Below are positions 4,621-44,884 of a stretch of 64,000 nucleotides of DNA, in pieces; the first letter of the stretch is position 1; each line of letters starts with the position of its first letter. The DNA lies in IMG/VR virus record IMGVR_UViG_3300028797_006177, positions 39,961-103,960 of that record; one strand, 5' to 3'. A program made the position numbers and the translations under genes. This DNA is from a virus. Lineage: Duplodnaviria; Caudoviricetes. The notes beneath the pieces were generated by a model, which did not search any database, was not told the origin of the DNA, and saw only the letters and a program-made list of their open reading frames with translations.

Positions 4621-5904
4621 ATGGCAAAGAAGAATTTGGCAACGGCAACAGCCGTAAATACGATGCAGTTGGGGAACTCTATCATTATAGAGGTAGGTGG
4701 CTCTGTCCGCAGAATTACCCTTGCAAACTTAATTGATGCTATCAATTCCGGCGACACACAGCTTCTTCACTCCGTGGCGTGGGGCGTGCCTCTGAAACAG
4801 AATTTATCAAGTCCCGCCTGGGGACGTGTCGGTAATCTCAACCTGTGGGAGGAGTATAAGGCAAAGAGCGGACGCTATCTCGTGAAGCAAAACGGAACTG
4901 CTGCAAAGCTTTCAACGGAAAACAGCGGCATTTATGCCGATGGAACGCCGCTTGACGAAACGGATGGGAATATTATGGTGGTATTCCCCGATTTGTACTA
5001 CCGTGTAGTGAGTGACCCCGTGACGAATGTGAATTATCTGTGGATGAGCATGATTCCTATTGGAGGTCATGTAATCAAGCATCCCGTAATCGGTGCATAT
5101 AAAGGCACGACAACACTTACGGAACTTGTTTCGCGTTCTGGCGCAGCTCCTGCAGGGTCCAAGACGATATCGCAGTTCTTGCAGTTGGCAAAAATGAACG
5201 GCAGCAACTGGGGGCTTACGAACTACGACCATATCAGGTTTATGATGATGCTTGCCCTCTCCGAGTATGGCTCCCCCAACATTCAAGCCCAACTTGGCTA
5301 CGGACTTTGCGGTAGCACATCCAACGGTGTTGGCTGGACTGAAACGCAATCATTACAGACAGGAGCGACAAAAAGCCTTGGCGATGCCGCAGGGAAAATT
5401 GATGTAAGCGTTTCAGGTGGAACAAATTGCTCCCACGTTAGTCTCTTCGGCATTGAAGACCCCTATGGTTGGCAATGGGAAATGATACAGGGCATCTATT
5501 GCGGCTCTTCCTCGAACAGCGGGCAAACAGGTAGCGAAGTATTCGTTTACGAGGGCAACCGTATGCCTTCGGCAGCAGAACTTGCCAGTCATCCAAGCGG
5601 CGAGTATAGGGAACTTAATCGTCTCACTTCGAGCGGCTATATTAAAACAGAATTGCTCGGCGAATATTTCGACCTGTTCCCTGCATCATTAGACGGCGGC
5701 TCTACGAGCTACTGGTGTGATTACTCCTATGCGTCCACCACTGGACAGTTGGTCCTGTGGGGCGGTGGTGCGAATGACGGCGCGGATTGCGGTCTCGCTT
5801 ACGTGAGCTCGTATCACGCTTTCTCGTTCTCGTATGCGTACTTCGGGGCCCGCCTTGCTTACTATGGTGAATTAACGATTGTGAATGGTGCAGATATCGC
5901 ATAA
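4621..5904 (+). CDS. DGR target protein; putative receptor-binding tail fibre with C-terminal C-type-lectin-fold variable region
   Basis: C-terminus 'LWGGGANDGADCGLAYVSSYHAFSFSYAYFGARL' is encoded by the VR; 'FGIEDPYGWQWE' motif typical of CLec-fold DGR targets. Confidence 0.9.
   Translation: MAKKNLATATAVNTMQLGNSIIIEVGGSVRRITLANLIDAINSGDTQLLHSVAWGVPLKQNLSSPAWGRVGNLNLWEEYKAKSGRYLVKQNGTAAKLSTENSGIYADGTPLDETDGNIMVVFPDLYYRVVSDPVTNVNYLWMSMIPIGGHVIKHPVIGAYKGTTTLTELVSRSGAAPAGSKTISQFLQLAKMNGSNWGLTNYDHIRFMMMLALSEYGSPNIQAQLGYGLCGSTSNGVGWTETQSLQTGATKSLGDAAGKIDVSVSGGTNCSHVSLFGIEDPYGWQWEMIQGIYCGSSSNSGQTGSEVFVYEGNRMPSAAELASHPSGEYRELNRLTSSGYIKTELLGEYFDLFPASLDGGSTSYWCDYSYASTTGQLVLWGGGANDGADCGLAYVSSYHAFSFSYAYFGARLAYYGELTIVNGADIA
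5747..5860 (+). repeat. DGR variable repeat (VR)
   Basis: 114-bp copy of 6103-6216 with 13 mismatches, all opposite TR adenines. Confidence 0.97.
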
Positions 5905-6102: not shown

Positions 6103-6216
6103 AGTTGGTCCTGTGGGGCGGTGATGCGAATAACGGCGCGAATTGCGGTCTCGCTTACGTGAACTCGAATAACGCTTTCTCGAACTCGAATGCGAACATC
6201 GGGGCCCGCCATACTT
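6103..6216 (+). repeat. DGR template repeat (TR)
   Basis: Non-coding, AAC/AAT-rich copy of the VR lying between target gene and RT. Confidence 0.97.
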
Positions 6217-6476: not shown

Positions 6477-7358
6477 ATGGCAAAGACAGAGAACATAGAT
6501 TGGAATTCACTTGACCCAGAGGCCATCGACATGATTCTGAAAGCCCGAATAGCGGACTATTGGAAGAGTGTCGAGGCCAACGGAGGAAAAGAGCCTAAGA
6601 GAGCAGGGTATCTCATCGAGCGCATTGCGGACATCGACAACCTCAGAGACGCTGACAGGGCGGCACAGAACGGAAAGGTCAAGAAGAACCGCTTCATACG
6701 CAGGCACAACGAACACGCGGAGCAGGACTTGCGAGAGATTCAGATGATGATTCTCACTTTGGACTTCCCGCCGTGCGAATACGAGTTCATGGACGTGGTA
6801 AGCGATGCAGGAAAGCTCCGGCACATAGCGAAGCAGAAATACCATCCCTGGCGTATATTGGCTCATGCCATCATGCAGATAGTAGGGCCTTACATATACA
6901 GAAGTCTGATTCACGACACGTTTGCCTGCATCAAGGGAAAGGGGCTGCATTTCGGAGTAAAGCGGATGAAGATGATGCTCAGACGCTATCCCGAATACAA
7001 GTGGTTTTGGAAGACGGACTTCAAGAAGTTCTACCTCTCCATTCCTCACGACGTGATGCGAGAAGCCCTGCGGCACAAGTTCAAAGATGAGCGGTTTATA
7101 GAACTCATGGATATTGCGGTGTTCTCATACGAATCGGGTGAAGAAATAACGAATGAATTGAATGAAGAACTACGATGGAAAGAGAGGTGTGCCTATAGGC
7201 GCATTCACAAGCCAGCCGCTCGGCAACTTCGCCGCCAGCGTCATAGACCACTACATGAAGGAGCAGCGGAGGGTGAAGTGTTACCTTCGTTACTGCGACG
7301 ATGCCACAGGCAGGGCGATGACAAAGGCGGCGGCTCGCAGGGACTTGGAGGCGTTTGA
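6477..7358 (+). CDS. DGR reverse transcriptase, N-terminal part (fingers and motif A)
   Basis: 'TFACIKGKGLH' and 'KTDFKKFYLSIPH'; RT similarity is lost after about nt 7140. Confidence 0.85.
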   Translation: MAKTENIDWNSLDPEAIDMILKARIADYWKSVEANGGKEPKRAGYLIERIADIDNLRDADRAAQNGKVKKNRFIRRHNEHAEQDLREIQMMILTLDFPPCEYEFMDVVSDAGKLRHIAKQKYHPWRILAHAIMQIVGPYIYRSLIHDTFACIKGKGLHFGVKRMKMMLRRYPEYKWFWKTDFKKFYLSIPHDVMREALRHKFKDERFIELMDIAVFSYESGEEITNELNEELRWKERCAYRRIHKPAARQLRRQRHRPLHEGAAEGEVLPSLLRRCHRQGDDKGGGSQGLGGV

Positions 7359-7500
7359 GAGCGTATCTTCCGAGATAGGTCTGGTAGTGAAACACTCTGC
7401 AGTTGTTGCACCAATCGGAATAGAACGTCGCAATGAACGGAAGAGAGACCGTAAACGCAAGCGAAGCAAGAGGTCGCACGATAGACTTCTTGGGATATAG
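7162..7500 (+). CDS. DGR reverse transcriptase, central part (motifs B and C)
   Basis: 'GVPIGAFTSQPLGN' (DGR-type SQ motif) and 'YLRYCDD'; +1 frame relative to 6477. Confidence 0.85.
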   Translation: MKNYDGKRGVPIGAFTSQPLGNFAASVIDHYMKEQRRVKCYLRYCDDATGRAMTKAAARRDLEAFESVSSEIGLVVKHSAVVAPIGIERRNERKRDRKRKRSKRSHDRLLGI

Positions 7501-8017
7501 GTTCACTGTACATAGGATCAGGCTCAGAAAGAGCATCAAACAGACCTTTGCACGAAAGAGTAAACGATTAACAGACAAAGACAGGAGGCGCGAAGTCCTT
7601 GCCAGCTATTGGGGCTGGTGCAAGTGGGGCGATTGCAAGCACCTGTGGAATAAATTAACAGACAACGATATGAGTTTTGCAAGCTTAGGATTCAAAAAGC
7701 GCGACCTTGTGAAAGACGGTCAGAAGTTCTTCGATGTTCCGGAGAGGAAACTCATGGACATTCTGAACATGCCGTTTACGGTGTTGGATTTTCAACCGAA
7801 CATTACAACGCGACAGGGACCTGGCAGGTATTGCGTTCTGTGCGAGCAGGACGGCCAGCGTTTCAAGTTCATAACGAACTGCTTCAACATAAAAGACGTG
7901 CTCGACCAGGCGAGTGAGGCAGAGAAGCGTGGGAGCAAGGTGTTCCCTGTTGATGACGTCAGGGTAAAGCGTAGAAGTCTCGGCGACGGCAAGAGCGCGT
8001 ATTACTTTGAAGAATGA
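7433..8017 (+). CDS. DGR reverse transcriptase, C-terminal part (motif E and thumb) fused to a putative accessory domain
   Basis: 'IDFLGY', 'RLRKSIK' and 'ASYWGWCKWGD'; internal in-frame ATG at 7670 starts a 115-aa non-RT domain. Confidence 0.8.
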   Translation: MNGRETVNASEARGRTIDFLGYRFTVHRIRLRKSIKQTFARKSKRLTDKDRRREVLASYWGWCKWGDCKHLWNKLTDNDMSFASLGFKKRDLVKDGQKFFDVPERKLMDILNMPFTVLDFQPNITTRQGPGRYCVLCEQDGQRFKFITNCFNIKDVLDQASEAEKRGSKVFPVDDVRVKRRSLGDGKSAYYFEE

Positions 8018-9601: not shown

Positions 9602-11602
9602 TTACATCCCGTCTGGCATGACGACGAAGCCGATGCCGCCACGGAAGTGCTTCACGCCCATGTATAGTTCGTCGAAAGCGTCCGTTCCGTCGGTGCGGAG
9701 TTCCTCTGGTGTGGAATCCTGAGCATCTACGGATAGTTTCTCACCTCCCTTCTGCTTCTTGAACGTCGAACCGTTGTGGCCGTAGCTGAGTTTGACATCG
9801 CATTGCTCGACTGCTGCCGTCAGCGGTTCGTTGTTCTGCTGGTTGAAGGCAATGGCGGGATAGCCGAAGCCTGCAAATGCCTCGTTGATGTCCTTGTATT
9901 TCTGCATGTGGCTTGGTGCCTGCCCCATATCGACGGGATTTACTTGCCAGCCGTACTTGCGAAGTTCCTTTATCACGGTATCTTTGATGTCGTCCATTGA
10001 AATGCCGTGCAGCTTGAACTTGGCGGTGTGGGAGAAGTAGTAGTTGATGTGCTTGTTCTTCTTTTTGTGCGGGGCATAGTAGCGGTCGAAGTCGCGTATG
10101 AGGTCTTGAATCATGCCGCCGTTCTTCACGAACATCGAATTGAGGACATTCAGTGTCTCTACGCCGCCTCGCTTATACTGCTGACCGATGACAATCCAGT
10201 TAATGAGGTTGTTGTAGTCGAGGGCTATTTCAAGGTCGAGGTCGTCGCGCAGGTCGCCGTCGAGCGAGCAGTCCTTGATGTTGGAGAGGTAGTCGAAGTC
10301 TGGGCTTTCGTACTCGGTGGGGTATGCCGTGCCGCCAACTATCTGTTTGCCCTGCTTAATCTTGTAGGAATCGTTGATGGCTGGGCAGTCATCGTCTATG
10401 TAGGTATGTATGTCGGGGTCGAAGTTGCAGTAGAAGCCTTCGCCCGATTTCTTCGGACGCAGGTTTAGCACGGATATGCAGTAAACGAGCGCAGGCAAGT
10501 CGCGCTTCATTCTCCGCAAATAGTCTTCGCCAAGGATATCTATATTGTCAAGTGCGGATGCCCGCACAAAATAGAACGAATTACAACGCAGATCGTCGAT
10601 ATGCTTCCTGTATTTCTTTGCGCCTCGTATCGCCATCATCTCAAAATGTTCTTCGTGAGTAATCAGGAAGCGGTAGTCGTAGAGCAGTTCGGCATCCTCC
10701 TCGCTGATGAGCTTGTAGGACACAAGGCGCGTGATGGTGTCCTTGGAATCGACTTTGTTCTGCTTGGGTACAATCCTATATCCACCCTCGCGCAGTTCAA
10801 CGGCGGCGGCCAGCGCACGGATGCGCTCCTTGGTCTCAGGCGACACCACCTGCACCCTGTGTCCGTCCTTCTTGGCCGAGCGCAGCAGTTCGTTGAAGAA
10901 GATTACGCGGTCGGCATACTGCTCCAGTTCGGTCTGTATGTCGCGGTATGTCTTGCCCTCGAACTCGCCGTGGTCAATCACTGTGTCGAGCATATCCTCT
11001 TCCCTGCCAAGCCAGTTGCCCCTGTTGACCAGCGAAGCGTCGCTGACGAAGCAGGTGCTCTTGTAGAATGGGTTCTCTTCCGAAAAGCGTTTGTCGCCCA
11101 ACGGATGCACAATGCCGCTGTTGGCCGGCATCACCTCCTCGTCAATTTTCTTCTTGGGGAGAAACTTGCACTCGTCGGCATCCACATAGCAGAGCGTCAT
11201 GCCGTTGGCACTACCAAACACAGAAAGGCTGAGTGCGTGCATCAAGTGGCCGTTGGCAAACCACATGGCATTCTCGTAGGACTTCGGGCGTATGATGCAC
11301 TGCTGCGTACCTTTGGGCGGCTTGCCCCAGCCGAAGTGTACGCCTTCCTTGAAACCATAGAAACGCTCCAATGCGGCAACCACACCTGGGATAGTCCTTG
11401 AATAGAGTTGCTTCCTGCTTGCGCCAAGGAAAGCACCCGCCCCTTGCGGCAGGGATTGAGCCACTGCCCAGATGCGCGGACCGAGCACACCGTCTGTCTT
11501 ACCGAAGCGTCGGGCAGCAAGGACGCGGAGGTCTCTTGCTCCAGCATAGAAGATGCGCTGCTGGACGCGGTTCATATATACATCGCGAGTGTCCTGTGCC
11601 AT
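9602..11602 (-). CDS. terL: Terminase large subunit
   Basis: Walker A 'AARRFGKT', Walker B 'YVDADECKF', RNase H-like 'IALDYN' and 'DGTDAFD'. Confidence 0.9.
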   Translation of the reverse strand: MAQDTRDVYMNRVQQRIFYAGARDLRVLAARRFGKTDGVLGPRIWAVAQSLPQGAGAFLGASRKQLYSRTIPGVVAALERFYGFKEGVHFGWGKPPKGTQQCIIRPKSYENAMWFANGHLMHALSLSVFGSANGMTLCYVDADECKFLPKKKIDEEVMPANSGIVHPLGDKRFSEENPFYKSTCFVSDASLVNRGNWLGREEDMLDTVIDHGEFEGKTYRDIQTELEQYADRVIFFNELLRSAKKDGHRVQVVSPETKERIRALAAAVELREGGYRIVPKQNKVDSKDTITRLVSYKLISEEDAELLYDYRFLITHEEHFEMMAIRGAKKYRKHIDDLRCNSFYFVRASALDNIDILGEDYLRRMKRDLPALVYCISVLNLRPKKSGEGFYCNFDPDIHTYIDDDCPAINDSYKIKQGKQIVGGTAYPTEYESPDFDYLSNIKDCSLDGDLRDDLDLEIALDYNNLINWIVIGQQYKRGGVETLNVLNSMFVKNGGMIQDLIRDFDRYYAPHKKKNKHINYYFSHTAKFKLHGISMDDIKDTVIKELRKYGWQVNPVDMGQAPSHMQKYKDINEAFAGFGYPAIAFNQQNNEPLTAAVEQCDVKLSYGHNGSTFKKQKGGEKLSVDAQDSTPEELRTDGTDAFDELYMGVKHFRGGIGFVVMPDGM

Positions 11603-11607
11603 AGTGT

Positions 11608-11952
11608 CTATGATTTTTGTCTTGCAAAGATACAGGGTTCGCCTGTGGCTACCGACACGTCCATTTTGAATCCCGCCATTTTCAGGTCGTCGATATAGAG
11701 TTTCAGCGGGTCGCCGAGTCCGCAGACAGTCGCCTTGAAGAAGTCGCGGAGCCGCGACTCGTCGAACTGCTCATAGTTCGGGTCGAACTCGCCACAAGGT
11801 TTATAGTGCCGCACGAAGGCACTCACCTTTTCCTCTATCACATAGTCGCGGAGGTGAACTTGGAAGCCATCGCCGTTTCCAGGCAGCTCCGTCTCGTCGG
11901 GCATATCTTCCCAATCCTCCCAATCGCGGTTCTTCTTTTTCTTCTTTGCCAT
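11608..11952 (-). CDS. Hypothetical protein
   Basis: 114 aa in the terminase operon. Confidence 0.65.
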   Translation of the reverse strand: MAKKKKKNRDWEDWEDMPDETELPGNGDGFQVHLRDYVIEEKVSAFVRHYKPCGEFDPNYEQFDESRLRDFFKATVCGLGDPLKLYIDDLKMAGFKMDVSVATGEPCIFARQKS

Positions 11953-11954
11953 AC

Positions 11955-12683
11955 CTATTCCTCGTTCTCCACGAATATATCCTTTTCTTCCTCTTCGACG
12001 GGCTGCCAGATGCCGTTGATTTCCTCCATTTCCGTCATCATTTCCTTTTCCGTCATGCCGTAGCGTTTGCGCATCTTCTCTCTTTCTTCGTCCGACATGC
12101 TTTCGCGGCCTTGCTTGACAACGCTCACGTCGCCAGTGATGTTGATGTTGGTGTTCGGCATCTGCTCCTGCGGGTCGTCGTCCTCCTTGAAGTCGTTGTT
12201 GATTTTCGCAAGGTCTTGGTTAGCCTGCTTCACGGCCTGCCAAGTGCCTGTCTTTCGTCCGTAGTTCATCATCCACGAGATGTTGTCCTCGAACATCGCC
12301 TTGTGGATGTGCTTCTTTGATACGTTAATCCTGCCCACAAGCTGATTGATGAGATAGATATCGTTGGCGATTTCCGTTGCGCCGCGCTTCGTGACGGCAC
12401 CCGTCTCAGGGTCTTTGGCGATGCCCAGCGCACGAATCATCTCAATAGCCGACTCGTTGCCAAGCTCTGCCTGTGCGAAGAGGTTCTTGTAGTCACGCTC
12501 TGCGATGCGGGTGGCAAGTGTACGGACGGGTATGGACGGATTTTCGGTGAAGAGCTTGTAGCACTCCAATGCAAGCCGCGCACGGAACTGACCGGGCAGC
12601 GGAATGTTCACCCGCTCCAAATCCACCTGTCCGTAGGTCCACTTGACAACCTTGTCTATATATCCTTGCGATGGTTGGCTCAT
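11955..12683 (-). CDS. Putative terminase small subunit
   Basis: 242 aa helical protein with acidic tail upstream of terL; call is positional. Confidence 0.45.
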   Translation of the reverse strand: MSQPSQGYIDKVVKWTYGQVDLERVNIPLPGQFRARLALECYKLFTENPSIPVRTLATRIAERDYKNLFAQAELGNESAIEMIRALGIAKDPETGAVTKRGATEIANDIYLINQLVGRINVSKKHIHKAMFEDNISWMMNYGRKTGTWQAVKQANQDLAKINNDFKEDDDPQEQMPNTNINITGDVSVVKQGRESMSDEEREKMRKRYGMTEKEMMTEMEEINGIWQPVEEEEKDIFVENEE

Positions 12684-14053
12684 TGCTTCTTAGTTTTCTT
12701 GGTCGTTTGGTTGTTTGGTCGTTTAGTCGTTTGGGATGCAGGTTTCTTGCTTGCCTTCTTCTCGTCCTTTTCAGCCCGCCATGCGGCGTTGTCCTCCTTC
12801 GTCTTTTCCAGGATGGGCAGGAAGGAATCGGCGAACTCGTCGCCCTTCAGTTCCCTCAGCCGCTCGATGCGCTGTGCCATCGTCTTTACCCTCTCGTCGG
12901 AAGCGTCCTTGTCGGTGCGCTTGATGTAGCGGACGAGTTCTGCCACCTCCTTCTTCACGGCTTCCTCCTGACGCATCCGCTCGGCATATTCGGGCGAATC
13001 CTGCTCGATGATGGTCTTGATGCGCAAGTCCAGTTCGGGCGACTTCAATTTCTCGTAGTACGGACGGGTGATGTAGGTGATTTTTGCGAGGTCAACGCCC
13101 TTGAACTTCTTCTTGAAGCCCTCGGTGAACGGCTCGTCTATGGTCAGTCGCTTGTGCAGCACAGCCAATTCTTCATCCACCGCAGCGTAGGTGCTCTCGA
13201 ACTGCTCGCGAGCCTCTTCTGCCAACTGTGCGTACTTCGCTATCTCTTCCTGACTGCCGCCACGCTCTGCCAGCACCTTGGCCGTCTGTGCCGCGTCGCC
13301 GAATGCTGTGCGCTGCGCCCTCACCATGTCGATGCGGTCTTGCAGTTCCTTCGAGCAAAGCCACTTGATGCTGGAGAGGTGCAGGCGGTCGTTCTCGATG
13401 CGCTCGGTGTAGATTTCGTCCATTGAACATTGACCATTGACCATTGAAGATTGGTTCTTGTTGTCGTTTTCGTTATCGTTATCGTTGAACAGACTTGGGT
13501 TCATCTCCCTTTCCTTCGCTTCGCGCTTGGCTCTCTCTGCTGCCAGTTCCGCATTGTTCTTCTCGCGGGGTGCTTCGTCGCTGACAATGACTTCAATCCC
13601 CATCATGCGGGCAATCATAATCTGCGTTTCCATCTCGGCATCCTGCGGCTTCGGCACTTCCAGTCCGTGCTTCCTTGCCTCCACCTCTGCCAGCGACGGC
13701 CTTCCCCTGCGGCGCAGCGGCACGGTGGGCTTCACCAGCGCAAAGGTGCGTCCGTCGCTGCCCTTCATCGTCAGCGTCTTGCTCACCTCTGCCTTGCACC
13801 GCTCGAAGTACATCCTTAGTCGGCCTGCCCTCGCCTCGAAGTCGCCGTAGTGTAATGCCTTCTCTACGAAATCCGTGGCGAAAGGCCAAGCCCCAATCAG
13901 GTTCAAGGCTACCTTCATCTCGTCGCTGTCCTTCTGTTCCCACTGGTGCGGCTTCACCAGAGCGTCGAGCCTGTCGTTCATAAACTCCGTAAAACCCTTC
14001 ATCCATTGCAACTGCTCGTCGGCAGTCATTTCCGTGTAAAGTTTCTGTGCCAT
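12680..14053 (-). CDS. Hypothetical coiled-coil protein with AT-hook-like RRRGRP
   Basis: Likely start ATG 14053 downstream of a TACTTTTG promoter element. Confidence 0.7.
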   Translation of the reverse strand: MAQKLYTEMTADEQLQWMKGFTEFMNDRLDALVKPHQWEQKDSDEMKVALNLIGAWPFATDFVEKALHYGDFEARAGRLRMYFERCKAEVSKTLTMKGSDGRTFALVKPTVPLRRRGRPSLAEVEARKHGLEVPKPQDAEMETQIMIARMMGIEVIVSDEAPREKNNAELAAERAKREAKEREMNPSLFNDNDNENDNKNQSSMVNGQCSMDEIYTERIENDRLHLSSIKWLCSKELQDRIDMVRAQRTAFGDAAQTAKVLAERGGSQEEIAKYAQLAEEAREQFESTYAAVDEELAVLHKRLTIDEPFTEGFKKKFKGVDLAKITYITRPYYEKLKSPELDLRIKTIIEQDSPEYAERMRQEEAVKKEVAELVRYIKRTDKDASDERVKTMAQRIERLRELKGDEFADSFLPILEKTKEDNAAWRAEKDEKKASKKPASQTTKRPNNQTTKKTKKQ

Positions 14054-14080
14054 AGTCTCTTTTTTATGTTGTTTCTGCGA

Positions 14081-14176
14081 CAAAAGTACGAACGAAAGCG
14101 AAAAGTATTCGGACATATCTTCCCTCCTCCTCTGTCGGTTATTGTCCGCGCATCGGTTTTGCTTTTCTTACCTTTG
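14081..14176. promoter_or_regulatory. Divergent promoters for the terminase and portal operons
   Basis: TACTTTTG (minus, 14081-14088) and TACCTTTG (plus, 14169-14176), each with GTCCG 20-21 nt upstream. Confidence 0.7.
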
Positions 14177-40785: not shown

Positions 40786-41184
40786 GATTTTTATCTTTTC
40801 TTAGTTTTGTTTGAATTTTGCTGCAAATGTATGATGTTTTTACTAAATATCCAAACTTTTAAGCAAGTTTTTATAACTTTTTGGCAACTTTGTTTGATAT
40901 TTTCGCTTTTTCCTGCACTTTCTCGGCAATTTTTAGCCTCTTTTTGCGGCGGAAATCCAAACGGCTTTCTGTCCCCTCGCAAAATGCACTAAATATCAGC
41001 ATTTTAGGCTTTCTGTTCTTTTTGCAGCGGAAATCACGATGCCGAAGGAAAGTTGTAACTCGCTGATTTTTATATCTTCTCATTTCGGCAACCAAACCCG
41101 ATGCCTTTGATTCAAAGAGAAGACCGCCGCCACACTGGGCGCGACCGGCTGCGCCCTGCGGCCCTGAATGCAGGGAATATGCTC

Positions 41185-41615
41185 CGGCCTTGCAGAGCGA
41201 ATGCTCGGAGCACCTTGAAGCCCTTGCAGGTGAAGATGCAGCCTTGAAGCCCTTGAAGCCTTGAAGCCCTTGCAGGTGAAGATGCAGCCTTGAAGCCCTT
41301 GAAGCCTTGAAGCCCTTGCAGGTGAAGATGCAGCCTTGAAGCCCTTGAAGCCTTAAAGCCCTTGCAGATGATGATGCAGCCTTGAAGCCCTGCAAGCAGG
41401 TGAAAGCCCTTGCAGATGATGATGCAGCCTTGAAGCCCTTGAAGCCCTTGAAGCCCTTGCAGGTGAAGATGCAGCCTTGAAGCCCTTGAAGCCCTGCAAA
41501 ACACTATACATTATTATATATATATAAGGCTGCAAGATGAAGCCTTGAAGCCCTGCAAGGTGATGAAGCCTTGCAAGATCTTGAAGCGAATGCAAGATGA
41601 AGCCTTGAAGATGCA
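41185..41615 (+). repeat. Left low-complexity repeat block of the AAA/vWA island
   Basis: Permuted words GAAGCC(C)TT, GCAGGT and GATGCAG; a ~46-bp unit repeated about 3 times. Confidence 0.9.
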
Positions 41616-41716
41616 GAAATAACAATAAAATGCAAGATGAAAAAGCCCTTTTTGCACTAAAATTGAAAGAAAAACACGAAAAAGTTACTTTTGAATGAAA
41701 AAAACTCCTTAAAATG

Positions 41717-41746
41717 TTTGTATATTCATATTATTTTGTAACTTTG
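41717..41746 (+). promoter_or_regulatory. Canonical Bacteroidetes promoter
   Basis: TTTG-N18-TAACTTTG upstream of 41810. Confidence 0.7.
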
Positions 41747-41809
41747 CAAGCGAAAAGTTAACATTTAATTATTAATCAAGGTGAAAGCCTTATCAAAAAA
41801 CAAAGTATT

Positions 41810-43372
41810 ATGAAGCAATTAAAAAGTGAAATTCTTGCTATCAAAGCAAGAGGCACCTATGAAGGCAAACAGTACTCCGTATCTGGTGCAAAGTGTGAAC
41901 TTTATCTTGAAGATGATAATATCTTCTTAATGTCACACAATTCAAAATGGAATAGGCTCGAAGAAGATGAAGCCTTGCAGCCTAAGAAAATGCATTCCTG
42001 GAAAAGTTATGCTTTTATCTGCAAAGCTAAGAAGATGCACGAATCACTTTCAAGTAGTGACATATCATTCTATAATGCAGAAATAAATGCAGCACTTAAT
42101 ATGATTATAGAATCTTTTGATTTATATGAAGTGAAGAAAGATGATGCACCAGTGAAAGATGATGCAGCCTTGCAGCCCTTGAAGAAAGATGAAGATGCAC
42201 CAGTGAAAGATGATGCAGTGCAGCCCTTGAAGAAAGATGAAGATGCACCAGTGAAAGATGATGCAGTGCAGCCCTTGAAGAAAGATGAAGATGCACCAGT
42301 GAAAGATGATGCAGTGCAGCCCTTGAAGAAAGATGATGCAGTGCAGCCCTTGCAGGGCTTGCAAGGTGCAGTTCTTGCAGGTGATAAGATGCAGATGATG
42401 CAGATGATGATGCAGATGATGATGCAGCCTTCAGGAATAAGTGAAGAAGCCTTGCAGATGATTCAAGGATTAAAGAATCAAAATGAACTGCAAGCAAAAG
42501 CCCTTGAAGCATATAAGACAAGATTAGAAGCCCTTGAAAATAAGGCACCTTCAAGGATTATTCACGAATTTCATACAGAAAAAGGTATTAAGAAGATAGA
42601 AGGTGAAATTTACCACAAGAACTTTGATAAGATTATGAAGGTTATAAACTTGAATATACCGGTTTATCTGTTTGGCCCTGCTGGTAGTGGAAAGAATGTA
42701 CTTGCGGAGCAGATAGCAAAAGCCCTTGATATTCCCTTCTATTATTCGAATAGTGTTACACAAGAATTCAAGGTTACCGGACATTCTGACATTAATGGAA
42801 AACTTGTTGAAACAGAATTTTATAAGGCTTTCACTAAGGGAGGCTTATTCATGCTTGACGAAGTAGATTCAAGTGATCCTAATGCTTTGATAGTTCTTAA
42901 TGCTGCACTTGCTAATGGATATTTTGATTTTCCAGTAGTAGGTAAGATGATGATGCATGAAGATTTTAGGTGCATAGCTGCAGGTAACACAAAAGGCACT
43001 GGAGCAACCTTAGAATATTCTTCAAGGTTTATTATAGATGAAGCCACAAGGGATCGCTTTTGCTTCTTTGAAGTAGATTATGATGAAAACATAGAAAAAG
43101 CCATTATAAAAAGGTATGATGCAGATGATGAAATTTTGCCTTTTGTCTATGATATTCGCAAAAGTGCAAAGAAGAATCAAGTACATGTTTTGTCCGGTAA
43201 CAGATTAATCAAGAATCTTGCAAGGCTTACAAAAGCAGGATTATCAATTAAAGATGCAGTGTTAAGTGCTTTCTTTGATAAGTACAACAAAGATGATTTA
43301 AGAATCCTTGCAGGTGACATGCTTACATATAATAATAAATATACTGAAGCCTTGAAGATGCTTGCAGCATAG
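41810..43372 (+). CDS. AAA+ ATPase (MoxR/CbbQ/CobS-like) with repeat-containing N-terminus
   Basis: Walker A 'GPAGSGKN', Walker B 'FMLDEVD', 'IAAGNT' and 'DEATRDRF'. Confidence 0.9.
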   Translation: MKQLKSEILAIKARGTYEGKQYSVSGAKCELYLEDDNIFLMSHNSKWNRLEEDEALQPKKMHSWKSYAFICKAKKMHESLSSSDISFYNAEINAALNMIIESFDLYEVKKDDAPVKDDAALQPLKKDEDAPVKDDAVQPLKKDEDAPVKDDAVQPLKKDEDAPVKDDAVQPLKKDDAVQPLQGLQGAVLAGDKMQMMQMMMQMMMQPSGISEEALQMIQGLKNQNELQAKALEAYKTRLEALENKAPSRIIHEFHTEKGIKKIEGEIYHKNFDKIMKVINLNIPVYLFGPAGSGKNVLAEQIAKALDIPFYYSNSVTQEFKVTGHSDINGKLVETEFYKAFTKGGLFMLDEVDSSDPNALIVLNAALANGYFDFPVVGKMMMHEDFRCIAAGNTKGTGATLEYSSRFIIDEATRDRFCFFEVDYDENIEKAIIKRYDADDEILPFVYDIRKSAKKNQVHVLSGNRLIKNLARLTKAGLSIKDAVLSAFFDKYNKDDLRILAGDMLTYNNKYTEALKMLAA

Positions 43373-43467
43373 AAGCAGATGAAGCCTTGAAGCCCTGCAA
43401 AGGGCTTTCAAGGGCTTCAAAGATAGAAGATACAAGAATATAAGGTAACACTAAAAACAAAGCGAAA

Positions 43468-44313
43468 ATGAAGCACATTTTAAATATATATAATAGCTTG
43501 CACGAGCTTTCTTCATACCTTGCACAAGAAGGCACAAGTACACTTTTTGAATTTAGAAAGAATCATCTTTCAAGTGAAGCAGAAGGTGATAAGGCTTTCA
43601 AGTTCACGAGCACTAAATCATATAAAGATGCAGATGATTTAATGAAATTCGGTGACAAGAAGAATGCAAAGAAGCTAAATGCAGCCTTGAAGATTAATGC
43701 ACCTGCATTCGGTATGATGAATAAGAAAAAAGCATTTAACTCTGTTTGGGGATTTATTCCTAATGTAGGTGCAGCCCTTGCAGGTGATCCATTAAATATG
43801 ATTATGATGCAGAATATACCAGCACAAAAGAAAGTTATAACTATCATTTATGATAAATCTGTAGATCACACTATCAAGACAAGTGAAATTATAGAAGCAA
43901 GTGCAAGATTAATTAATGCTATCATAGCACTTGAAAATGCAGGTAAGCGAGTAAATCTGTTTATCTTAGGAGGATTCGCTAATAAATATAGTGTGAATGC
44001 AGATGAAAGCATGATAGCACTTACAAAGATTAAAGATTCTGGTAGTTTATTCGAAAAGGAAAAACTTGCATATTCCCTGCTTAATCCTTCATTCCATAGA
44101 AGGCACATGTTTAAGTGCTTAGAAAAGCAAGAAGGCTTAACACTTAGTGCTTTTCACGAGCATTATGGATATCCTCCTCATAAAGGGCTTACAGAAAAAG
44201 TGCTTAAAGAAAAAAGATTTAATTATGATGCACTTTTCACTTTCTATGATATTCGTGACAAGCAAGATGAAGATATTAAGAAGATGATAGAAGCAAGGAA
44301 AAGTGCAGCATGA
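43468..44313 (+). CDS. vWA-like partner of the AAA+ ATPase
   Basis: 'ITIIYDKSV' degenerate MIDAS strand, 'LENAGKRVNL' and 'PSFHRR'; adjacent to a MoxR-like ATPase. Confidence 0.65.
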   Translation: MKHILNIYNSLHELSSYLAQEGTSTLFEFRKNHLSSEAEGDKAFKFTSTKSYKDADDLMKFGDKKNAKKLNAALKINAPAFGMMNKKKAFNSVWGFIPNVGAALAGDPLNMIMMQNIPAQKKVITIIYDKSVDHTIKTSEIIEASARLINAIIALENAGKRVNLFILGGFANKYSVNADESMIALTKIKDSGSLFEKEKLAYSLLNPSFHRRHMFKCLEKQEGLTLSAFHEHYGYPPHKGLTEKVLKEKRFNYDALFTFYDIRDKQDEDIKKMIEARKSAA

Positions 44314-44314
44314 A

Positions 44315-44770
44315 AGCAGATGAAGCCTTGAAGCCCTGCAAAGGGCTTTCAAGGCTTCAAAAGATGCAGGTGACAAGATGCACCAGTGAAGCAAGCAAAA
44401 GCCCTTGAAGGGCTTAAAAAGGCTTTCTTGAAGCCCTTGCAAGATGAAGCCTTGAAGATGCTCGGAGCATTCCTGCATGATGCAGCCTTGAAGCCCTGCA
44501 AGCAGGTGAAAGCCCTTGCAGGTGATGATGAAGCCTTGAAGCCCTGCAAGCAGGTGAAAGCCCTTGCAGATGATGATGCAGCCTTGAAGCCCTTGAAGAT
44601 GCTCGGAGCATTCATTCAAGATGAAGCCTTGAAGATGATGAAGCCTTGAAGATGATGAAGCCTTGAAGATGATGAAGCCTTGAAGATGATGAAGCCTTGA
44701 AGATGATGAAGCCTTGAAGATGATGAAGCCTTGAAGATGATGAAGCCTTGAAGATGATGAAGCCTTGAAG
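44315..44770 (+). repeat. Right repeat block; includes GATGAAGCCTTGAAGAT (17 bp) as 8 full copies plus 1 partial at 44620-44770
   Basis: Counted directly. Confidence 0.95.
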
Positions 44771-44884
44771 CCCTTATATTATATATTATATGTATGTTAT
44801 AGATGTTATAGAAAATTAGAAAAATTAGAAAATTATATATATTATAGAACCGCTGAGAAATCAGCATTAAAAAAATTAAGTATT

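Follow-up and report, generated by a model that had tools for sequence, protein, structure and literature searches.

The window examined here, a 64,000-nt stretch of phage DNA, is part of a single 104-kb contig that carries terminase-like and portal-like genes. It holds a DGR cassette with a tail protein gene as target and a DGR-type reverse transcriptase (RT) in which every catalytic motif is present, spread over three ORFs. The initial annotation had described these ORFs as overlapping, with each step a +1 frame change, and the ORF coordinates and motif positions agree with that description. The features are as follows.

4621..5904, plus strand: DGR target gene, a 427-aa tail protein with the VR near its C-terminus (PHROG 5302 tail protein, E 8e-53)
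5747..5860, plus strand: VR, with 13 mismatches to the TR, all at TR adenines
6103..6216, plus strand: TR, pairing with the single VR
6477..7358, plus strand: RT piece A, 293 aa, frame 0 (PHROG 1423, E 2e-37), comprising an N-terminal extension, fingers, motif A and then an added acidic/basic helix to ~7182; the remainder, up to 7358, is an unconstrained tail according to the frame-specific constraint analysis
7017-7019, plus strand: Asp181 of motif A (TDFKKFY), in piece A
7162..7164, plus strand: junction-1 ATG, putative start of piece B (open ATG in 39/43 lineages, 23.2 expected)
7162..7500, plus strand: RT piece B, 112 aa, frame +1 (PHROG 1423, E 1.5e-14), comprising motif B (IGAFTSQ, 7195), motif C (YCDD, 7291), a palm helix and an added basic tail
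7433..7435, plus strand: junction-2 ATG, putative start of piece C (open ATG in 42/45 lineages, 26.4 expected)
7450..7464, plus strand: R-x-R-x-R of the piece B tail, read in frame B downstream of the piece C ATG
7433..8017, plus strand: RT piece C as a whole, 194 aa, frame +2
7433..7672, plus strand: first part of piece C, with an unconstrained leader, G-R-x-IDFLGY (motif E) and a short thumb (PHROG 1423, E 1.6e-12)
7481, plus strand: motif E (IDFLGY), in piece C
7673..8017, plus strand: second part of piece C, a fused beta-barrel, tentatively OB/SSB-like (PHROG 19665, E 2.5e-12)

The three pieces tile a single RT profile in order, covering PHROG 1423 positions 93-271 (piece A), 280-362 (piece B) and 365-437 (piece C). 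The nearest solved relative of piece A is the 328-aa RT of PDB 8ub7 (E 3e-15), and Pfam detects the RT pieces barely. No ORF was found between the target gene and the RT. A two-codon mini-ORF (ATG AAT TGA, 7153-7164) lies directly 5' of the piece B ATG in the same frame; relatives are without it.

The TR/VR pair had been called pristine; 13/13 mismatches are at TR adenines, and 44 nt separate the end of the VR from the stop codon of the tail gene. In two JGI assemblies (3300028832 and 3300037512) the RT is identical to that of the window throughout, junctions included. These assemblies show 11 differences from the window in 6,585 bp, none of them in the RT, and 11/11 are VR sites at TR adenines (P 4e-9). 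The two assemblies (loci L363 and L364) have one VR allele in common, these 11 adenine-templated sites lying between 5768 and 5833 of the window. The DGR of the window phage has recently been diversified, in an adenine-specific manner. Neither a second VR nor another RT was found on the 104-kb contig, and because there is no other RT, the split enzyme is likely the source of VR mutagenesis: it would copy the TR RNA, with adenine-specific errors, into the VR of the tail gene. No Pfam or PHROGs family match to Avd, which occurs in 74% of DGRs and is not defining, was obtained among the neighbours.

The same layout is widespread. Related loci with all motifs numbered 334, many of them near-copies, and lineages were defined as clusters at 90% identity. 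Offsets of +1/+1 were seen in 230/334 loci, which after clustering left junction 1 in 43 lineages and junction 2 in 45. Carriers of the split RT include Bacteroides, Muribaculaceae and other Bacteroidales genomes; among genome contigs, an alignment-based search gave 27 matches, while a single-protein search gave 0. The split is present in the cultured phages BI-TP1 and LoVEphage as well. Every split is +1, and no +2, ATGA-coupled or non-overlapping relatives were found. In 37/43 split lineages the RT is accompanied by a TR/VR pair whose mismatches are almost all at adenines; of the six others, five have <610 nt of flank. All three pieces are under purifying selection, with pN far below pS; for the window against L001, pN/pS values are 0.13/0.63 (A), 0.19/0.77 (B) and 0.10/0.55 (C). 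Identical independent assemblies and 43 lineages with the same offsets show that the split is due neither to chance nor to an assembly error, and both conditions that would have refuted the initial annotation fail: the homologues are not uniformly single-ORF, nor is selection relaxed. These comparisons show that the three-frame RT is genuine and conserved, that selection maintains it and that it is compatible with DGR activity. Five LoVEphage-like loci (L026, L030, L332, L369 and L373) carry deletions at YCDD or motif A, or a broken piece C, and by their sequence inactive DGRs do occur within the clade.

The anatomy of the junctions is best understood by comparison with single-ORF relatives. 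The distance between motifs A and B is 129-138 nt in these relatives and 172-184 nt in split forms, and that between motifs C and E is mostly 132-141 nt against 175-208 nt, pointing to an insertion of ~35-65 nt at each junction. In insert 1, frame A encodes the conserved helix and stays constrained until ~5 codons before the IG of motif B, with frame B taking over selection at R-G. In insert 2, the basic tail is encoded in frame B, which is constrained until 5-6 codons before IDF, where frame C takes over at G-R, a pair that precedes IDFLGY in 113/118 homologues. R97, R99 and R101 of the piece B tail are invariant in 24 alignment rows, and changes in the RxRxR region leave the frame-B residues unaltered but alter those of frame C. 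Frame B stays constrained for ~10 codons beyond the piece C ATG. The stop of piece A falls 14-236 nt past IG and its tail is not shortened (mean quantile 0.67). For piece B, most lineages have the stop 2 nt inside motif E, where xTT is used in 34/45 against 42/143 comparable Ile codons.

What is conserved at these junctions differs from what had first been proposed. The hexamer AATGAA is indeed present at 7161 and 7432, with a third copy at 7152 and 36 across the window, but it fails as a shared signal, being found at both junctions in only 2/43 lineages, which likewise rejects it as a recoding signal; the sequence around the ATG takes 8 different hexamer forms at the first junction and 18 at the second. 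An in-frame stop does stand directly before the first ATG (TGA 7159-7161), but at the second junction the stop (TAG 7421-7423) is three codons upstream rather than adjacent. Across lineages the distance from stop to ATG is 0-65 codons, so that adjacency is neither a junction feature nor a coupling device. The conserved element is the ATG alone.

Several observations characterise these ATGs. Their counts exceed what the amino acids of the upstream frame and the local codon usage would predict. The p values are optimistic because the lineages share ancestry; with 21 distant rows, junction 1 retains p 0.002 and junction 2 is borderline at p 0.06. Upstream codons for N, D, H or Y are T-ending at ratios of 46:1 (junction 1) and 44-46:3 (junction 2), compared with 401:167 elsewhere, and the T-ending fraction at the junctions exceeds that of all 12 control columns (0.59-0.86). 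TTG or GTG codons stand in 5/7 of the ATG-less exceptions over both junctions: all four such lineages at junction 1 have TTG there (TTG/GTG in 8/39 others), and one of the three at junction 2 has GTG at -14. L279 and L185 show no start at the usual junction-2 position. Between the ATG and the core at junction 1 there are 0 stops where 4.2 are expected (p 0.004), and the junction-2 ATG codon has undergone 7 changes in frame C against 57 in the overlapping frame-B codon. The junction ATGs lie in a weakly folded, A-rich context that is intermediate between true starts and random ATGs, with median MFE values of -2.9 and -5.4 compared with -7.9 for other +1 ATGs in the RT and -3.3 for true starts. 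Translation initiation in Bacteroidia is SD-independent (PMC6847099), and A-rich, weakly folded junction ATGs fit initiation of this kind.

How, then, is the RT expressed? The initial annotation had offered a heterotrimer or double +1 frameshifting, as a putative means of rationing DGR activity, and these are still the two live readings. We favour the former, in which the RT consists of three separately initiated chains forming one enzyme, and consider it probable on comparative grounds, with appreciable room for doubt. The preference arises because no slippery codon, SD, homopolymer or stop is found at the hand-over, while the ATG is conserved. A frame shift at the junction-2 ATG is itself excluded, as frame B is constrained ~10 codons past it, and the ATG therefore needs another use. 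Translation would begin at 6477 and be initiated anew at 7162 and at 7433, two ATGs internal to the upstream ORFs; around the junction-2 ATG, one stretch of bases would serve both to open chain C and to complete chain B. Chains A (fingers and motif A), B (motifs B and C) and C (motif E, thumb and OB-like domain) would then co-fold, so that the polymerase palm sheet would be built from all three. Each cut would have come with its 35-65 nt insertion, from which the downstream chain would gain its start codon and the upstream chain an additional C-terminal tail, namely the acidic/basic helix on A and RxRxR on B. Termination-coupled restart at junction 1 was rejected as the source of chain B, given the variable position of the piece A stop and its lack of selection for early termination.

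A co-fold of the three chains scored 0.84, against 0.00 for the best control, with contacts agreeing at ≥92% and partner pLDDT of 76-79; the mark was reached by 58/80 solved and 2/110 mismatched pairs. In the model, B is threaded between A and C, the added helix of A touches B, and the tail of B is unplaced. Such a predicted pass is expected from the likeness to solved RTs and does not separate three chains from a frameshifted product.

Some results do count against three chains. At both junctions, selection changes frame within 1-2 codons, after basic residues; every split is +1; chain A would carry 5-80 junk residues; and the junction ATGs score under true starts (PWM start scores of 1.4 and -1.6 versus 4.5), the window copy having T at -3 of the 7162 ATG, with junction 2 borderline on distant rows and without a usual start in L279 and L185. 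The first two of these, together with the unconstrained ORF A tail, are what would be expected if one RT chain were made through two programmed +1 frameshifts at the hand-overs (~7180-7183 and ~7465-7472), to which ribosome pausing on poly-basic nascent peptides (R-K-x-R, RxRxR) may contribute. A natural A-B fusion points the same way: in P0122 (L371:2501-3394, 2 contigs) a 1-nt deletion lies exactly at the junction-1 hand-over. There is precedent in the prfB gene of Bacteroidia, which undergoes a +1 shift of ~7% even without an SD (PMC10798248), and two frameshifts were proposed for Quimbyvirus by Benler et al. 2021 (PMC8008677). Nevertheless, we regard this account as unlikely, if a serious contender. 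It does not explain why an ATG is conserved 6-18 codons before each hand-over, nor does it account for the TTG/GTG replacements and the open frame. Sites allowing same-box +1 re-pairing occur in only 25/43 and 22/45 lineages and are of mixed kinds, SD-like sequence is present in 2 (junction 1) and 6 (junction 2) lineages, and there are no A7/T7 runs. Across split lineages no conserved shift site with a stop, hungry codon or SD stimulator was found. The B stop was discarded as a stimulating site, since the G-R upstream of it is conserved in frame C. An SD-stimulated shift was set aside too, because the AGAGG seen in 32/43 lineages at junction 1 encodes R-G, which the others write CGN-GGN, and at junction 2 it occurs in 11/45. 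A nascent-peptide frameshift signal is possible.

A mixed route, with one junction frameshifted and the other newly started, or both processes running, appears quite unlikely. The ATGs might then supply extra B or C, such as a surplus thumb-OB protein, while a shifted full-length chain would be catalytic. Such a route would accommodate both the ATG signal and the tight hand-over, as well as the weaker statistics of junction 2 on distant rows and the independent gain and loss of the junctions. It nevertheless requires two mechanisms where one suffices, and neither junction has a slippery site.

Repair at the RNA level, through transcriptional slippage, editing, splicing or a gene-60-like hop over the inserts, we consider highly improbable. 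Removing the ~49-nt inserts of the window copy would restore the ancestral spacing of 132 and 141 nt, and matching Gly codons flank insert 1 in that copy. These codons are not conserved, however, and a hop between them fits only the window copy and L008; moreover, the amino acids that the inserts encode in the upstream frame are under selection, insert lengths vary only by multiples of three with no homopolymer, and an Rfam search gave no match. An assembly error or a decayed pseudogene, with VR variation old or supplied in trans, is just as remote: a few close relatives do carry true lesions (YCDD deletions, broken piece C), but identical junctions in independent assemblies, the recurrence in 43 lineages and two cultured phages, the low pN relative to pS in all pieces, the confinement of assembly differences to TR adenines and the lack of another RT on the contig speak against it.

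Returning to three separately started chains, the phylogeny allows a tentative history. Split RTs and that of LoVEphage form one clade, with the window and LoVEphage inside it at 100/100 support, and in a larger quick tree 41/41 split rows fall on one side. Two-piece AB/C forms (L070, L075, L089, L360 and L361) combine the ancestral A-B spacing with the same junction 2; L070, L089, L360 and L361 have the same ATG and basic tail and lie at the base of the clade beside the intact RT L077, L070, L089 and L077 sitting at an open basal fork of the RT tree. A converse A/BC form, P0088 (L365:342-1737), is represented by 52 contigs nested inside the split clade, having lost the basic tail and the junction-2 ATG while keeping junction 1 and its ATG. 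These forms suggest that junction 2 arose first and that re-fusion occurs, and their sequences would be consistent with two junctions gained and lost independently. In the heterotrimer reading, the enzyme would have passed stepwise from intact to AB/C to A/B/C, with occasional re-fusion to A/BC. The RT would then probably be a natural heterotrimer of stepwise origin with a shared active site, motif A being on chain A, YCDD on B and motif E on C. A second A/BC form, P0125 (L377:142-960), was observed, in which B and C are fused, the basic tail is deleted and junction 1 is kept with its ATG.

Piece C ends in a further domain of 115 aa (PHROG 19665), which many single-ORF relatives encode as a gene of its own downstream of the RT; in relatives such as L083 and L090 that gene overlaps the stop codon of the RT. 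A nearly invariant in-frame Met at 7670 stands just before it. The domain is modelled at pLDDT ~80-90, and its best structure match is the PRD1 SSB P12 (Z 5.5, a middling score, rmsd 3.3, 87 aligned), with most top rows being OB folds; a Foldseek search with piece C gave no match at E 0.001. Based on the model, an OB/SSB-like fold is assigned tentatively. As a guess, it may serve as a nucleic-acid-binding accessory part in a cassette without Avd, and it is possibly an accessory component of Avd-less DGRs more generally, maybe with its own start at Met 7670.

Other features of the window were recorded. Low-complexity arrays of 17-, 46- and 48-nt units (GATGAAGCCTTGAAGAT type) occupy ~3.6 kb at 41167-44806, with few long ORFs nearby. 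Between 44828 and 50362, a motif of the ATTATAGAACC...GAAATTAG type recurs in 7-8 copies at a spacing of 260-1,800 nt and is likely a promoter or operator before small genes. The terminase large subunit and its neighbours (9602-14116) are encoded on the minus strand; they separate the tail module, which is on the plus strand, from the portal gene.

The initial annotation knew of no DGR built this way. A three-frame RT was in fact published in 2021, when Benler et al. (PMC8008677) described the Quimbyvirus DGR RT as spanning three overlapping frames and put forward two programmed frameshifts, without a junction comparison; LoVEphage (Van Espen et al. 2021, PMC8525569; MW660583) belongs to the same clade as the window RT. 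The comparison of lineages made here favours separate starts over frameshifts, and a literature search found no paper testing how the three-frame RT is expressed. If the favoured reading is true, the published double-frameshift reading would be overturned for one of the commonest gut phages, and the split might serve to control how host-recognition proteins are hypermutated. Among the phages of this clade, LoVEphage isolates, BI-TP1 and PV4-TP1 are in culture. In annotations the RT label is placed on piece A only, with piece B missed or truncated, so that active split DGRs are easily scored as broken.

LoVEphage is the best named relative of the window. Its piece A is 66% identical, its +1/+1 offsets are the same and its motif spacing is identical (181/96/190 nt); its tail module is syntenic at 42-64% identity, with the target gene at 56%. 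It differs in having two VRs where the window phage, a 104-kb contig, has one. BI-TP1 (PQ571265) likewise encodes its RT across three overlapping frames and shows VR variation specific to adenines. A B. dorei CP011531.1 prophage is matched at ~95% by Quimbyvirus and by LoVEphage alike. Sequence comparison with LoVEphage places the window RT in the three-frame clade, and through the shared match to CP011531.1 the Quimbyvirus ORFs 52-54 would have the layout seen here. The terminase (9602-11602) tells a different story, its 24 matches being other phages at 24-29% with LoVEphage not among them. From this, the window phage is probably of a different lineage from Quimbyviridae with the tail-DGR module common to both, and the module has probably moved between phage lineages.

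The DGR of Bordetella phage BPP-1 (summarised by Wu et al. 2018, PMC5758913) shares the cassette of target with VR, TR and RT, the adenine-specific mutagenesis of a tail protein and a homologous RT, PDB 8ub7 being the best solved match. However, bRT is a single chain of 328 aa and Avd has a gene of its own, whereas the window has three ORFs and Avd was not found. The window further differs in its OB-like domain fused to the thumb and follows Wu's architecture A order, TR-RT (PMC5758913). The prfB gene of Bacteroidia (PMC10798248) offers a +1 change in the same host group, but the window junctions are without a stop at the shift site, a conserved slippery codon or an SD.

Should the three chains assemble, they would constitute a tripartite RT of natural origin, of interest for the study of polymerase folding and for split-RT tools. 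Naturally split DNA polymerases exist in the T4-like gp43A/gp43B and the two-subunit archaeal PolB, which are two-chain B-family enzymes. Like these, the window RT would have a palm assembled from separately encoded chains; unlike them, it is an RT, encoded in three overlapping ORFs, and its catalytic aspartates would lie on two chains.
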